The position numbers and the translations under genes are program-made. This document shows, one piece after another, positions 8,080 through 25,369 of a stretch of DNA of 62,697 nucleotides. Below the pieces are notes generated by a model that was not told the origin of the DNA, ran no database searches, and saw only the letters and a list, made by a program, of their open reading frames with translations. The stretch covers positions 1 through 62,697 of the forward strand of contig CALRHC010000003.1 of the NCBI GenBank assembly GCA_943359335.1, given 5' to 3'. Position 1 is the first letter of the stretch; every line of letters begins with the position of its first letter. This stretch comes from Candidatus Yanofskybacteria bacterium (lineage in GTDB: Bacteria; Patescibacteriota; Minisyncoccia; JACQLN01).

Positions 8080-9075
8080 TTATGGTTGTATGTTATTAGG
8101 CCAAGACCAAGCTTCTTCTACCCATTTTACAGCTTTTCTTATTTGGCTAAAGCGATCGTTAGATCCTAGCACTAAATATATAATTTCTGTATTGTTTGAA
8201 CTTGTTGTTACTAAAACCATATTCCCCAATGCTCTATTTGTAAAACCGGTTTTTCCACCTATAACATTAGTGTATTCGTTTAAAAATGGATTAGTTGATT
8301 TAAAATTATGAATAGCTACAGCGTTTAAAGATTTAGTACTGTAATTTTGCATTTTTAATATATCCCAAATCAAAATATATTTAGGGTTTTCTCTTAAATA
8401 TTTTATGAATTTAGAAAAATCATTGGCTGTACTAAAAGAATTTATATCCTCTAAGCCTGCTGGATCTGTAAAATTAGAATGAAGCAAACCTAGGTCGTTA
8501 AATTTTAAATTCATCATTCTTACAAATTCCCTAACAGGTGCGGCACTAACTTCGGGATTAGTTTGTAATTTTCCACCAACATGTTCGGCCAAAGCATAAG
8601 CAGCATCATTAGAAGATTCTAAAAGCGCTGCCGCTAAAAGATCTTTTATGGTAAGTATCTCACCTTCTTTTAAGTTACCGCTATCTCCTTCGTTTTTGAT
8701 TGCTTTTGCCGAAATTGATGTTGTTTCTAGTGGATCAGCATAATCTAAAACCAAAGCCGCTGTTATAAGTTTAGTTAAAGAAGCTATTGGACGAGGTTCC
8801 TCTGCATTTTTTGAATAATAAATAAAATTCTCTTTAAAATCCCAAATTAGCATCGAGGTTGTGTCTGCTTCTATTTCTGGAATTTCTATATTTCTTTGCG
8901 GGGTAATTTTAACAGCTATTGGTGGAGCTGTTTTTTTATTGGTGTTTAAATCTATGGCAGGAGTATTAAAATATGCGCTAGCCGCCATATATTTTGGTGT
9001 GCCAACTTGGTACGACAAAAGTAGTGTAGGAACAATAACAAACGCACCAATTAAGATATATAAAATTTGTCGCAT
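8080..9075 (-). CDS. D-alanyl-D-alanine carboxypeptidase (peptidase S11)
   Basis: SLTK (SxxK), SSND (SxN), GKTG triad. Confidence 0.9.
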   Translation of the reverse strand: MRQILYILIGAFVIVPTLLLSYQVGTPKYMAASAYFNTPAIDLNTNKKTAPPIAVKITPQRNIEIPEIEADTTSMLIWDFKENFIYYSKNAEEPRPIASLTKLITAALVLDYADPLETTSISAKAIKNEGDSGNLKEGEILTIKDLLAAALLESSNDAAYALAEHVGGKLQTNPEVSAAPVREFVRMMNLKFNDLGLLHSNFTDPAGLEDINSFSTANDFSKFIKYLRENPKYILIWDILKMQNYSTKSLNAVAIHNFKSTNPFLNEYTNVIGGKTGFTNRALGNMVLVTTSSNNTEIIYLVLGSNDRFSQIRKAVKWVEEAWSWPNNIQP

Positions 9076-9623
9076 TAGTTTTGAAGTAGTTTTTCTGTTT
9101 TAAATACCTCCGATTTTAATTCGTTGTATTTTGGTAGTTCGTGTTCTTTTTCTAAACCTAGTTTTTTTAAAGCACCTAAAGATATCTGGTATGTTTGAGG
9201 TTTCGTTGTATCGTTTTTATCTACTAAACCCCTTAATGTTAAATTTCGCAAAGCATAGGTTGAATTTACACCTCTTAATACTTCTACTTCGCTTTTAGAA
9301 ACCGGCCCACGATATGCCACAACAGCCAAAACTTCTAAGCTAGCAGGAGTTAATTCTTCTTGTATCTCGCTTTTTACAAGTTTTTCTATATATACGGAAG
9401 ATTCTTTACTAGAAACTAATTGCCATTTATCGTCTTTGCTAATAAGTTTTATTCCCCTATTTAAAAAATTATTTTTTAAATTTTCCAAAGCTAATAAAAC
9501 ATCATTAGTTGAAGCCAAAGTTATTTCTACCAATTTTTTTATGCTAATACTTTCACCATAAGAAAAAAGCAAGCTTTCTAAAACTTGTTCTAAATTTTCT
9601 ATATTATTTGTTCGTTTTGCCAT
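9075..9623 (-). CDS. scpB: SMC-Scp complex subunit ScpB
   Basis: LTPASLEVLAVVAYRGPVSKSEVEVLRGVNS. Confidence 0.92.
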   Translation of the reverse strand: MAKRTNNIENLEQVLESLLFSYGESISIKKLVEITLASTNDVLLALENLKNNFLNRGIKLISKDDKWQLVSSKESSVYIEKLVKSEIQEELTPASLEVLAVVAYRGPVSKSEVEVLRGVNSTYALRNLTLRGLVDKNDTTKPQTYQISLGALKKLGLEKEHELPKYNELKSEVFKTEKLLQN

Positions 9624-23386: not shown

Positions 23387-23647
23387 TTGTTTCAGGGATT
23401 CTATAACATTTTACCTGTTCTGGCAACCTAGAAGTATAGTTTTGTTAAGTTGCCTAAACTAATGGTATTTTCCATATTTTGTCTACAAAATTAAATTTAT
23501 TTATTAAATCTCCTATGTTTCTAAGTTTAATTTCGTTATTATAGTGTGTAGTGGGTTTATAATTTTTTTTGCAGTAGATATATTTGTAGCATTAGATACA
23601 ATACTGTAGGCTGTTGATGATACTAGGTTTAAGGTATTTTTTAATAA

Positions 23648-23858
23648 TATGGAACATCAAGTCTTATACAGAAAATATCATTCCGTCGCGCCAGCGATGG
23701 CGCTCTTTAGAAACCCACGGTTTCTAACACTCGCTTCGCTCGCTATTTTCCTCCGCGGGGAAACTACAGTTTCCCCGACCCCTTTCGGCGAGGACGATAT
23801 TTTCTTTTTTAATTTTTAATTATGGAACATCAAGTATTATATAGAAAATATCGTCCTC
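23648..23858 (+). repeat. Structured insertion flanked by a 32-bp direct repeat of the dnaX 5' end
   Basis: 23648-23679 vs 23821-23852 (30/32); internal hairpins; 16-nt arm 23790-23805 complementary to 23843-23858. Confidence 0.9.
23649..23819 (+). CDS. Possible 56-aa leader ORF beginning with the DnaX N-terminal MEHQVLYRKY
   Basis: Open frame ATG 23649 to TAA 23817-23819, ending 2 nt before the dnaX ATG. Confidence 0.35.
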   Translation: MEHQVLYRKYHSVAPAMALFRNPRFLTLASLAIFLRGETTVSPTPFGEDDIFFFNF

Positions 23859-25369
23859 AAACATTTGCCGAAATAGCTGGGCAAGAACACGTGGTTAAAA
23901 CTCTAAAGAATTCTTTAGCAAGCAATAAAATTGCGCATGCTTATCTTTTTGCTGGTCCTAGAGGCAGTGGTAAAACAACCATTGCTCGTTTAATGGCCAA
24001 GGCTTTAAATTGCACGGAGGCGGATGGTTTTAAAAGACCGTGTAACAAATGCGAAAACTGTTTGAGTTTTAACGAAGGTAAGTTTTTAGATCTTATAGAA
24101 ATAGATGCCGCGTCTAACCGTGGAATAGACGAAATTCGCAGTTTACGCGAAAACGTTCGCTTTGGGCCAAGTACTGGTAAATATAAAGTTTATTTAATAG
24201 ACGAGGCCCATATGATAACCAAAGACGCTTTTAACGCTTTTTTAAAAACTTTAGAAGAACCACCGGCATATGCTGTTTTTATTTTAGCCACCACCGAAGC
24301 CCATCGGCTATTACCTACTATAGTTTCTCGTACACAACGCTTCGATTTTAAAAGATTATCTATTAACGAACTTACATCTAGGCTTTCGGAACTCGCCAAA
24401 AAAGAAAAGGTAGAAATAGATGCTGAAGCTTTAAAACTTATTGCACACGAAGCCGATGGCGCCGCTCGTGATGCTGAAGGTTTGTTGGGGCAAATTATTG
24501 CCACCGGCGAGAAAAAAATAACTTTAGAAAATGCCGAAGAACTTTTGGGTTTGTTTTCGCACCGAAAAATTAAGGAATTAGTTTCTTTGGCTTTAGCCAA
24601 AGACCAAGCTGGTGCTTTAAATTGGTTACATAATACTGTTAATGCCGGTTACGATGTTAACCAACTTTTGAAATCTTTAAATCATTATGTTAGAAAACTT
24701 ATAATGATTTCTGTTTCGCCTCAATTAGCCGAAACAGCCAAAGCCGATCTAGCCGAAGAAGATTTTAAACATATGGCGGAGCTAGCTAAAAAAGCACCAA
24801 CTGCAGAACTGGCTAATTGGCTACATGTTTTTTCGCAAGCTAAAAACAATTTTAATAATTATCCTTTACCGCAGATGGCGTTAGAAGTGGCGTTTATTAA
24901 TTTGCTTTCGAATAAAGAATTAGGAATTAAGAATTATGAAAATGCAGAAGGAGTTAAGAATCAAGAATCAAGAATTAAGACAGAAGAAAAAATAATATCT
25001 AAACCAAGCATAGAAAAACCTGTTCTTAATTCATCATTCGTAATTCATAATTCAACTCCTGAAAAACCAAAAGAAATTTCTGTTGTTTCAGAATCAAAAG
25101 ATAATATTTCGGACGCAAATATTTTAGAGTTAGTTAAATCCAAATGGCAAGAAGTAATTACCGAGGTAAGACCTCATAATCATTCTCTCTCTGGGTTTTT
25201 AATGGGCATGAAACCAAAAGAAGCTTCGTCTGCGGTACTCACGCTAAGTACTAAGTATTCTTTTCACAAGGATCGTTTAAGTGAACACAAAAATAAAAAG
25301 ATAATAGAAGACGCGGTAGAAAAAGTTTCCGGCTACAAACTTTCGTTAAATTGTGTTTTGGAAAAATAA
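23822..25369 (+). CDS. dnaX: DNA polymerase III subunit gamma/tau
   Basis: LYRKYRPQTF, GPRGSGKT, EIDAASNRG, IDEAHM, KTLEEPP. Confidence 0.97.
   Translation: MEHQVLYRKYRPQTFAEIAGQEHVVKTLKNSLASNKIAHAYLFAGPRGSGKTTIARLMAKALNCTEADGFKRPCNKCENCLSFNEGKFLDLIEIDAASNRGIDEIRSLRENVRFGPSTGKYKVYLIDEAHMITKDAFNAFLKTLEEPPAYAVFILATTEAHRLLPTIVSRTQRFDFKRLSINELTSRLSELAKKEKVEIDAEALKLIAHEADGAARDAEGLLGQIIATGEKKITLENAEELLGLFSHRKIKELVSLALAKDQAGALNWLHNTVNAGYDVNQLLKSLNHYVRKLIMISVSPQLAETAKADLAEEDFKHMAELAKKAPTAELANWLHVFSQAKNNFNNYPLPQMALEVAFINLLSNKELGIKNYENAEGVKNQESRIKTEEKIISKPSIEKPVLNSSFVIHNSTPEKPKEISVVSESKDNISDANILELVKSKWQEVITEVRPHNHSLSGFLMGMKPKEASSAVLTLSTKYSFHKDRLSEHKNKKIIEDAVEKVSGYKLSLNCVLEK
24917..25054. repeat. In-frame heptamer (GAATYAR-like) repeats with an inverted second arm inside dnaX
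   Basis: GAATTAG/GAATTAA/GAATTAT 24917-24937; GAGTTAA/GAATCAA/GAATCAA/GAATTAA 24951-24978; inverted TTAATTC 25026, TAATTCA 25041 and 25048. Confidence 0.75.

Follow-up and report, generated by a model that had tools for sequence, protein, structure and literature searches.

Elements that encode a tyrosine integrase target the 3′ ends of tRNA genes, the 3′ ends of ribosomal and housekeeping genes and, more rarely, 5′ ends; one of their flanking repeats contains the gene end, and cis-mobilizable elements (CIMEs) are integrase-less derivatives that keep attL and attR (PMC5704250). Here we describe an insert at the start of dnaX (DNA polymerase III gamma/tau) in Candidatus Yanofskybacteria bacterium, contig CALRHC010000003.1 of assembly GCA_943359335.1, of which the 62,697 nt analysed are called the window. 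The core of the insert is one member of a dispersed family of structured elements and is not specific to dnaX. The best reading of the family is a miniature integrative element that restores the gene end at which it sits, and it could be more than that if its target-complementary arm directs insertion. It shares target classes, a gene-end-containing repeat, an undisrupted gene and tandem accretion with integrative and mobilizable elements, integrative and conjugative elements, prophages and CIMEs. Unlike CIMEs, the whole element measures about 140-210 nt and has a uniform, strongly conserved structured core, which is not that of a decayed island; an inverted copy of the target lies beside the core, the repeats are 16-68 nt long and no duplicated overlap is apparent after the relic gene end. 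In contrast to integrase elements, neither an autonomous relative nor an integrase was found for the family.

In integron attC sites and in the attP hairpin of CTX phage, an inverted repeat, imperfect or perfect, can form a hairpin in a single strand and so reproduce a duplex recombination site. The order of our elements, with a first direct repeat (DR1), then an inverted target copy (X′), a spacer and the second direct repeat (DR2), resembles the direct repeat of a cassette boundary with its internal inverted copy. However, no R-box (GTTRRRY) and no dif-like sequence is visible in the family, and its stem is host gene sequence that differs at each target. Miniatures of IS200/IS605 elements (PATEs) and the REPIN/RAYT system are small, non-coding and hairpin-rich, lack classical terminal inverted repeats, insert 3′ of a fixed tetra- or pentanucleotide, and neither duplicate their target nor rebuild a gene. 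The family is likewise small, non-coding and hairpin-rich, without classical terminal inverted repeats, and one 208-nt subfamily behaves as a high-copy miniature with fixed ends. Unlike PATEs and REPINs, its members have long target repeats and left-flank ends that vary (ATATC, GACGCG, GGGGA, TAGGA), no common target tetranucleotide was seen across subtypes, and the Y1_Tnp genes seen near two copies are flanked by other palindromes.

Classical transposable elements of the miniature inverted-repeat type (MITEs), such as the Correia and Rickettsia palindromic elements, encode their own terminal inverted repeats and duplicate a short stretch of the target, always of the same length. Like them, the family consists of short, non-autonomous repeats that ribosomes can read through and that may alter expression of the adjacent gene. 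Unlike in MITEs, both the “inverted repeat” and the 16-68 nt duplication are host gene sequence, different for each target. Finally, the dnaX insert recalls leaders and attenuators coupled to an upstream open reading frame (uORF), in that the main ORF begins where an upstream one ends and mutually exclusive helices can be drawn. It differs from them in being a recent insertion that is common to unrelated genes and missing from close relatives, and neither sensing codons nor a ligand pocket can be pointed to in it.

Structure of the dnaX locus

The direct repeat at dnaX consists of DR1 (23648-23679) and DR2 (23821-23852), which lie on the + strand, as do the other parts of this locus; the copies are 32 nt long, identical at 30 of 32 positions and 173 nt apart. 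Each begins 1 nt 5′ of its ATG, and DR1, the relic start, extends from this T to the first base of codon 11. Both mismatches (GTC/GTA and TAC/TAT) are synonymous, and MEHQVLYRKY is read from either copy. In a blastn-short search within the window the repeat had E = 4e-8 and the 16-nt arm pair described below E = 0.003, so neither is a chance match. The functional DR2 is continuous with the gene and encodes the N-terminus MEHQVLYRKYRPQTF, as in relatives with an empty site. As this complete second start copy runs on into the gene, dnaX (23822-25369, 515 aa, recognised from its ORF, Pfam domains and homologue names) is intact. DR1 and DR2 have the same sequence at their inner ends, and the next 6 nt are not repeated after DR1 (ATTCCG vs GTCCTC). 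The inner repeat edge, where relic copy and element join, corresponds to the point between 23852 and 23853.

The element itself starts with a variable left arm (23680-23702), which differs among family members and among dnaX lineages and includes a GCGCCA-GCGA-TGGCGC hairpin (23688-23703). The conserved family core follows (23703-23787; 61.9 bits and E = 7e-14 with covariance model R1, the sole copy in the window). It is composed of a perfect 9-bp hairpin (hp2, 23707-23727), an optional middle segment (23728-23743), a linker (..TTTTCCTCCG, 23744-23755), a perfect 10-bp hairpin (hp3, 23756-23777) and a tail (ACCCCTTTCG, 23778-23787). Behind the core lies the arm X′ (23790-23805), which is complementary at 16 of 16 positions to X2 (23843-23858, dnaX codons 8-13), that is, to the final 10 nt of the repeat and the next 6 nt of dnaX. 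The same arm pairs 10/10 with the relic copy at 23670-23679. An AT-rich spacer (23806-23820), not conserved among family members, separates X′ from DR2; the present initiation signals of dnaX, whatever they are, are located in it. The insert has a G+C content of 55%, compared with 34% for the window, in which neither blastn-short nor a covariance search without filters found a second copy. A uORF of 56 aa starts at the old dnaX start codon and runs through the element to a TAA in the spacer (23649-23819, stop 23817-23819).

Folded alone, the insert has a predicted energy of -57 kcal/mol with a closing stem between the relic copy and the arm (z = -7.2; 0 of 200 shuffles equalled it). With dnaX codons 1-19 added, the minimum-energy fold is at -75.2 kcal/mol (z = -7.4) and the arm pairs with codons 8-13 instead. 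As the two predicted folds differ, two mutually exclusive arm pairings exist on paper. The initial annotation of this locus had described the duplication with its synonymous mismatches, the 9-bp and 10-bp stems, the 16-nt complement, the 10-nt pairing with the relic copy and the uORF ending 2 nt before the dnaX ATG, and all of these are borne out. The hairpin with a GNRA loop that it listed is also present, but is not kept in the relatives L001 and L179 (L-numbers label comparison loci). The cloverleaf that it drew is closed by 10 bp, but beyond these there are only two short interrupted runs and no clean cloverleaf.

The tail sequence TTTCGGC (23783-23789) is complementary to GCCGAAA in dnaX codons 16-18 (23867-23873), and in the predicted fold this pairing lengthens the arm/dnaX helix across an 8-nt bulge. 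It comprises 6 bp in L001 and is missing in L179, and may be a chance match.

A dispersed family of structured elements

The 20-nt sequence of hp3 had 96 exact matches in metagenome contigs, representing 56 sequence contexts with the same flanking core. This core of about 70-85 nt contains hp2, an optional hairpin, a linker ending in ..TCCTCCAC, hp3 (CGGGGAAACTACAGTTTCCCCG) and the tail GACCCC(C/T)TTCG. The tip of hp2 is conserved as AACC-NNN-GGTT. A covariance model, R1, built from 16 short forms of the core, recovered the family loci at 43-95 bits, and some genomes held multiple copies. When 46 copies were aligned, compensatory double changes were seen in 8 of the 9 pairs of hp2, and 95% of cells were paired. 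The covariation score of hp2 was 0.278 against 0.078 for shuffled alignments, with 0 of 500 shuffles as high, and it also exceeded slid controls; hp3 was left out of this test because it had served as the search key.

The family is apparently undescribed and was found at the ends of housekeeping genes in Patescibacteria (the candidate phyla radiation). A limited search of the full-text literature found no description, and an earlier one may exist; the initial annotation had recognised no described family. A search of Rfam 15 with the dnaX locus gave nothing meaningful even at E up to 10, and at the gathering threshold only tRNAs were detected (one in the window, others in 40 loci). No match to the element was found by blastn among 50,697 phage and 72,556 plasmid records. 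The uORF peptide had a single match in the protein database, P0001 (65 aa), which corresponds to a copy associated with fusA.

A 208-nt subfamily was represented by 27 occurrences with constant end-to-end spacing. The 20 copies compared were 98-99% identical in unrelated flanks, with fixed ends (GTAAAC...TCATTAA) and no clear target duplication. Empty copies of the hairpin pair that flanks this subfamily were not present among the fetched loci. In three of its copies (L087 at about 9000-9110, L098 and L174) hp2 is interrupted by an inserted palindromic repeat, about 100 nt long (GGGACTGTTGCCGAAT...ATTCGGCAACAGTCCCC). This repeat also occurs alone beside other copies, in the right flanks of L110 and L127, and is probably another miniature mobile element.

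Copies at other gene ends

In at least 21 contexts the order of parts is that of the dnaX locus: a relic DR1, a variable left arm, the core, X′, a non-conserved spacer and a functional DR2. An equivalent of X′ was seen in all 21 tabulated contexts, 11-34 nt long and 0-2 nt after the tail. The arm spans the inner end of the repeat and often reaches 1-9 nt further into the gene, and in none of the 21 contexts is its match to the functional copy poorer than that to the relic. Repeats range from 16 to 68 nt (dnaX 32, fusA 63, lepA 43, tRNAs 16-68), with the gene intact each time. Their outer edge falls 0-3 nt beyond the start codon, the stop codon or the tRNA 3′ end in at least 7 targets, and in several copies (L001, L116, L165 and L094) the repeats are 100% identical. 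The right side of the element always faces into the gene; elements are thus co-oriented with the gene at 5′ ends and opposite to it at 3′ ends. Among tRNA-adjacent copies, 14 of 17 have the right side toward the tRNA 3′ end, antisense to the gene.

The copy at the fusA 5′ end (L081), between rpsG and the EF-G gene, has a core about 95% identical to that of the window. Its 63-nt start duplication shows 15 differences, 13 of them synonymous by our count, and its arm is complementary at 13 of 15 positions to the codons for AHIDA. A diversity-generating retroelement was considered here and rejected, since these 15 differences involve all four bases and are not confined to adenine. At the lepA 3′ end a 43-nt repeat begins 3 nt outside the stop codon, and the rpsI 3′ end also carries a copy of the core. 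The tRNA genes targeted, at their 3′ ends, are those for Glu, Arg, Ser, Thr, Gln, Ile, Asp and Met. For the tRNAs studied in detail (Glu, Arg and Thr), the inner repeat edge lies in the T-loop between positions 59 and 60. The T-loop and the anticodon loop are classical sublocations for tRNA-targeting integrases.

Tandem copies were found at tRNA-Gln in L106 (1915-2323) and in L142, one of them degenerate at 30 bits. In L106 they are separated by a 45-nt partial tRNA copy with CGG instead of CAG at the anticodon position, and the similarity of their spacers indicates that the unit of spacer and tRNA end was duplicated. In L165 a third partial 3′ end of tRNA-Arg (2518-2550) lies upstream of the intact element and is followed by a hairpin, TGTGCTCTCGGTA-TGAGA-TACCGAG; this extra copy looks like an older insertion that has lost its core.

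One locus at which the element is conserved lies between secA and a gene for a large membrane protein (L112:10300-10545), and has equivalents in L086, L100, L114, L117, L129, L134, L140 and L162; the flanking proteins are 39-94% identical among these loci. The target there, CAATG[C/T]GGAGGACGGGTGCGAGCTCCAAAG, had no match in Rfam, and its 69-aa ORF had none in Pfam. An IS200-like/RAYT transposase was considered as the mobiliser of the family and rejected: L129 and L162 have such genes nearby and L090 a fragment of one, but the genes have their own, unrelated palindromes. The Y1_Tnp genes (L129:1177-1904 and L162:852-1639) each stand between paired perfect palindromes of 33-35 nt, in the manner of RAYT/REP systems, and share the intergenic hotspot with the element without being related to it.

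Filled and empty dnaX sites

When GTDB was scanned with DnaX, one close relative, L001, a Patescibacteria metagenome-assembled genome (80% DnaX identity), proved to have the same architecture. Its two dnaX-start copies are identical to each other at 32/32 positions and differ from those of the window at the same positions (GAAAATTTA vs GAACATCAA). L001, L093 and L132 have one shared sequence, and L178 (89% DnaX identity) and L179 (83%) are further cases, so that the filled sites are those of the window, L178, L179 and L001. L093, L132 and L178 come from metagenomes of Hainich groundwater. The dnaX sites of L180 (80%), L181 (74%) and L182 (75%) are empty. In these only 16-86 nt separate the end of the upstream gene from an uninterrupted dnaX start, the X2 region is likewise uninterrupted, and a model search without filters detected no core. 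At 79 dnaX loci of greater divergence no element was found. One clade of the DnaX tree holds the filled sites together with a single empty member, L180, the sister of L001; there was therefore either one old gain with one precise loss, or two gains.

The arm follows the codon for Arg-11 in each lineage. It reads GAGGACG... opposite CGT in the window and GAGGCCG... opposite CGG in L001, and in L179 GCG stands opposite CGC. The base tracked lies outside the relic repeat, and three synonymous states are matched. In L179 the 38 nt before DR1 are identical (38/38) to the sequence that precedes the dnaX ATG in L181, where the site is empty, and since the native flank thus adjoins DR1, DR1 is the displaced original start. 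L179 has 7 differences between DR1 and DR2, of which 6 are synonymous; pooled with the fusA copy L081, 19 of 22 differences are synonymous by our codon count. The two repeats therefore look like two functional alleles, not like a gene and a decaying relic.

By eye L179 is a mosaic, similar to the window and L001 from the middle of DR1 to about +45 of dnaX and similar to L181 beyond that. This small sample suggests that the filled dnaX allele may have moved among lineages by recombination. Among lineages the insert is 81-87% identical and the third codon positions of dnaX 69-73%, and the region upstream of DR1 is essentially unalignable. The insert must be constrained or repeatedly renewed, because it is more conserved than third codon positions. 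Both L179 and L181 belong to GCA_030697795.1, where two dnaX loci, one filled and one empty, lie on separate contigs; this bin probably mixes two related organisms.

The uORF and translation of dnaX

The uORF is open in all four dnaX lineages (the window, L178, L179 and L001) despite indels of +3 and -9 nt, and also in the fusA copy L081. Its stop lies 2 nt before the dnaX ATG in the window, L178 and L179 and overlaps the ATG in L001; in L081 it ends 11 nt short of the fusA ATG. As a protein the peptide shows no conservation, and substitutions within the element are mostly non-synonymous. P0001 (L081:3001-3198) is an artefact in which the relic fusA start is read into the element, and the 56-aa uORF of the window is a spurious gene call of the same kind.

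A secondary effect of the insertion on translation of dnaX is possible. On the geometry of the locus, ribosomes would initiate at the old dnaX initiation region, now the start of the uORF, translate through the element and melt it, and terminate 2 nt before the rebuilt ATG; dnaX would then be translated by termination-reinitiation. Without ribosome traffic on the uORF, the arm would be free to pair with codons 8-13.

Probable mode of integration

We consider it probable, from the comparison of these sequences, that 23680-23820, a small, non-coding, structured DNA element beside an intact gene, is non-autonomous and integrative and leaves its target whole. By analogy, the dnaX insert is best read as a counterpart, at about 140 nt and with a target-complementary arm, of the integrase-less derivatives of islands in tRNA and ribosomal genes. 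A copy of the gene end, functional or relic, would be carried on the element, or exchanged by recombination, and this copy would recombine with the chromosomal gene in a Campbell-type event. The enzyme would be supplied in trans and would most likely be a site-specific recombinase of the tyrosine type, which is favoured because the target classes match those of tyrosine-integrase elements. Alternatively, the element could spread by homologous recombination following DNA uptake. The perfect inverted repeat of X′ and X2 would form part of the recombination site and would not be a sensor. A travelling gene-end copy would explain why the repeat ends near the gene terminus, why the gene survives and why the differences between old repeats are synonymous. 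Where a single tRNA carries tandem or remnant copies (L106, L165), the arrangement is similar to accretion at att sites.

Several observations weigh against such an integrative element. No recurrent recombinase was present among the ORFs within 3 kb of the 56 contexts (about 0.7 Mb around the copies), and no transposase or reverse transcriptase was associated with the element in the surroundings examined. No larger autonomous relative was found, nor, within 9 kb, a distant partner of the upstream repeat that would enclose cargo. Elements with similar left arms and cores (about 91% by eye) occur at different tRNAs, Glu in L116 and Arg in L165, which favours copying of the target at insertion. 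A classical att site explains neither the extension of the arm by 1-9 nt past the repeat nor its tracking of lineage-specific synonymous changes. Contrary to what is expected of a tyrosine-recombinase crossover, no duplicated overlap is apparent after DR1. The insertion looks old, yet the two repeats have codons peculiar to their lineage in common (MEHQ in the window, MENL in L001); such concerted repeats need gene conversion or repeated re-insertion.

Alternative explanations

Of the alternatives, the one that survives best is that the element is of mobile origin and has been domesticated, being kept now in the dnaX clade since the uORF and the alternative arm pairings, with the relic copy or with codons 8-13, tune DnaX synthesis to translation capacity. 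The greater conservation of the insert (81-87%) than of synonymous sites (69-73%) would fit selection of this kind, as would a uORF frame that survives +3 and -9 nt indels with its stop adjoining the ATG, an arm that is perfectly complementary through CGT, CGG and CGC, and two strong alternative predicted folds. However, L180 (the sister of L001), L181 and L182 manage without the insert, and insertion in frame on two occasions has a chance probability of about 1/9. The logic of the arm also recurs at the 3′ ends of tRNA genes, lepA and rpsI on the opposite strand, where an mRNA-level explanation is inapplicable. Moreover, the arm/dnaX helix begins 22 nt after the ATG, past the footprint of a typical initiating ribosome, so the start codon would not be occluded; the initial annotation had supposed that this pairing would loop out the start codon. 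Domestication is possible but unlikely.

Somewhat less likely still is target-templated, perhaps guide-directed, insertion, in which no gene copy is carried and X′ and the second gene end are synthesised from the target each time. Target-primed synthesis or template switching may be the route, for example, and the arm may guide the next insertion. This would account for an arm that fits the local gene down to lineage-specific synonymous bases and bases outside the relic repeat, for repeats that are 100% identical in L001, L116, L165 and L094, for near-identical elements at different tRNAs and for a spacer that is not conserved among copies. Copying would be blind to start and stop codons, yet the repeats end 0-3 nt outside them at lengths of 16-63 nt. 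In addition, most positions at which DR1 and DR2 of the older copies disagree are synonymous, a sign of two functional alleles, and a polymerase or reverse transcriptase partner was not seen around the element. Template-switch and staggered-cut schemes were worked through on paper and set aside, as none yields both the arm and the boundary at the gene terminus.

We are equally doubtful of the related proposition that the family is a new kind of mobile element whose choice of target is written in nucleic acid, with X′, a perfect match to the intact target on both sides of the insertion point, acting as a DNA or RNA guide and the second gene end made or maintained by copying the target. If it were true, a scaffold of about 70 nt with a rewritable arm could colonise the end of any conserved gene harmlessly, and spread across species would need only homology in the target gene, DNA uptake being one possible route. 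In recombination, the arm might in addition hide the second copy. On direct reading of the sequences beside the arm targets, no common motif was found of the sort that TnpB-like guide logic would involve.

A riboswitch or attenuator specific to dnaX that evolved in place, with the duplication providing a leader peptide, is very improbable. The strong structure, the uORF and the alternative pairings had led the initial annotation to propose two exclusive folds that, together with translation of the uORF, could control the gene. The folds do exist in silico, but a dedicated switch as the origin of the insert is already contradicted by the distribution of the core. The core lies in both orientations beside unrelated genes (fusA, lepA, rpsI, tRNAs and the secA-side locus), antisense in 14 of 17 tRNA copies; it is missing from 79 other dnaX loci and from three close relatives whose DnaX is 74-80% identical, and matches no Rfam family. 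What survives of the switch is a possible consequence of insertion, with the uORF kept open, its stop at or near the ATG and arm complementarity kept. The other suggestion made initially, a mobile, non-autonomous element that draws its terminal stem from the target, is supported by the comparative data and extends to a family. Further copies are indeed located at gene termini, with a duplicated end and a complementary arm, dnaX relatives do have empty sites (L180, L181 and L182), and the same architecture in independent assemblies rules out an assembly artefact.

That the insert is an ordinary housekeeping RNA gene, such as the signal recognition particle (SRP) RNA gene ffs, which often precedes dnaX in bacteria, may practically be dismissed: it is rich in G+C and has a closing stem, with a T-run behind, but it has no match to SRP RNA, 6S RNA, tmRNA or RNase P at E up to 10 and no domain-IV motif visible in its sequence, and the core is multi-copy in some genomes and missing before dnaX in close relatives.

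Implications

With an integrative element of this kind, the puzzling duplicated start of an essential replication gene is explained as the mark of a recurrent element. The same mark is seen at fusA, lepA, rpsI and many tRNA genes, where gene callers make spurious small proteins of the relics. Patescibacteria have tiny genomes and few described mobile elements, and an element that occupies the ends of essential genes yet spares them, surpasses synonymous sites in conservation and occurs as filled and empty alleles among relatives offers a new handle on DNA movement among them. If the arm sets the destination, the family would amount to an insertion system that is very compact and retargetable by nature. 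Should a recombinase act in trans instead, the element would point to integrases and minimal att sites as genetic tools, of which Patescibacteria have almost none at present. At the dnaX locus it can also be tested whether an essential gene has come to rely, for its translation, on reinitiation behind a relic uORF.

The region upstream of dnaX

A divergent DUF4015 gene lies between a DoxX-like gene and dnaX in L001 (about 2500-2830), L179 (148-1311), L181 (309-1472) and L182 (321-1484). The window lacks this 387-aa gene in the corresponding region (23387-23647), as do L178 and L180. A remnant of it is retained at 23585-23640, which matches L001:2678-2735, and the right edge of the deletion adjoins the relic dnaX start.

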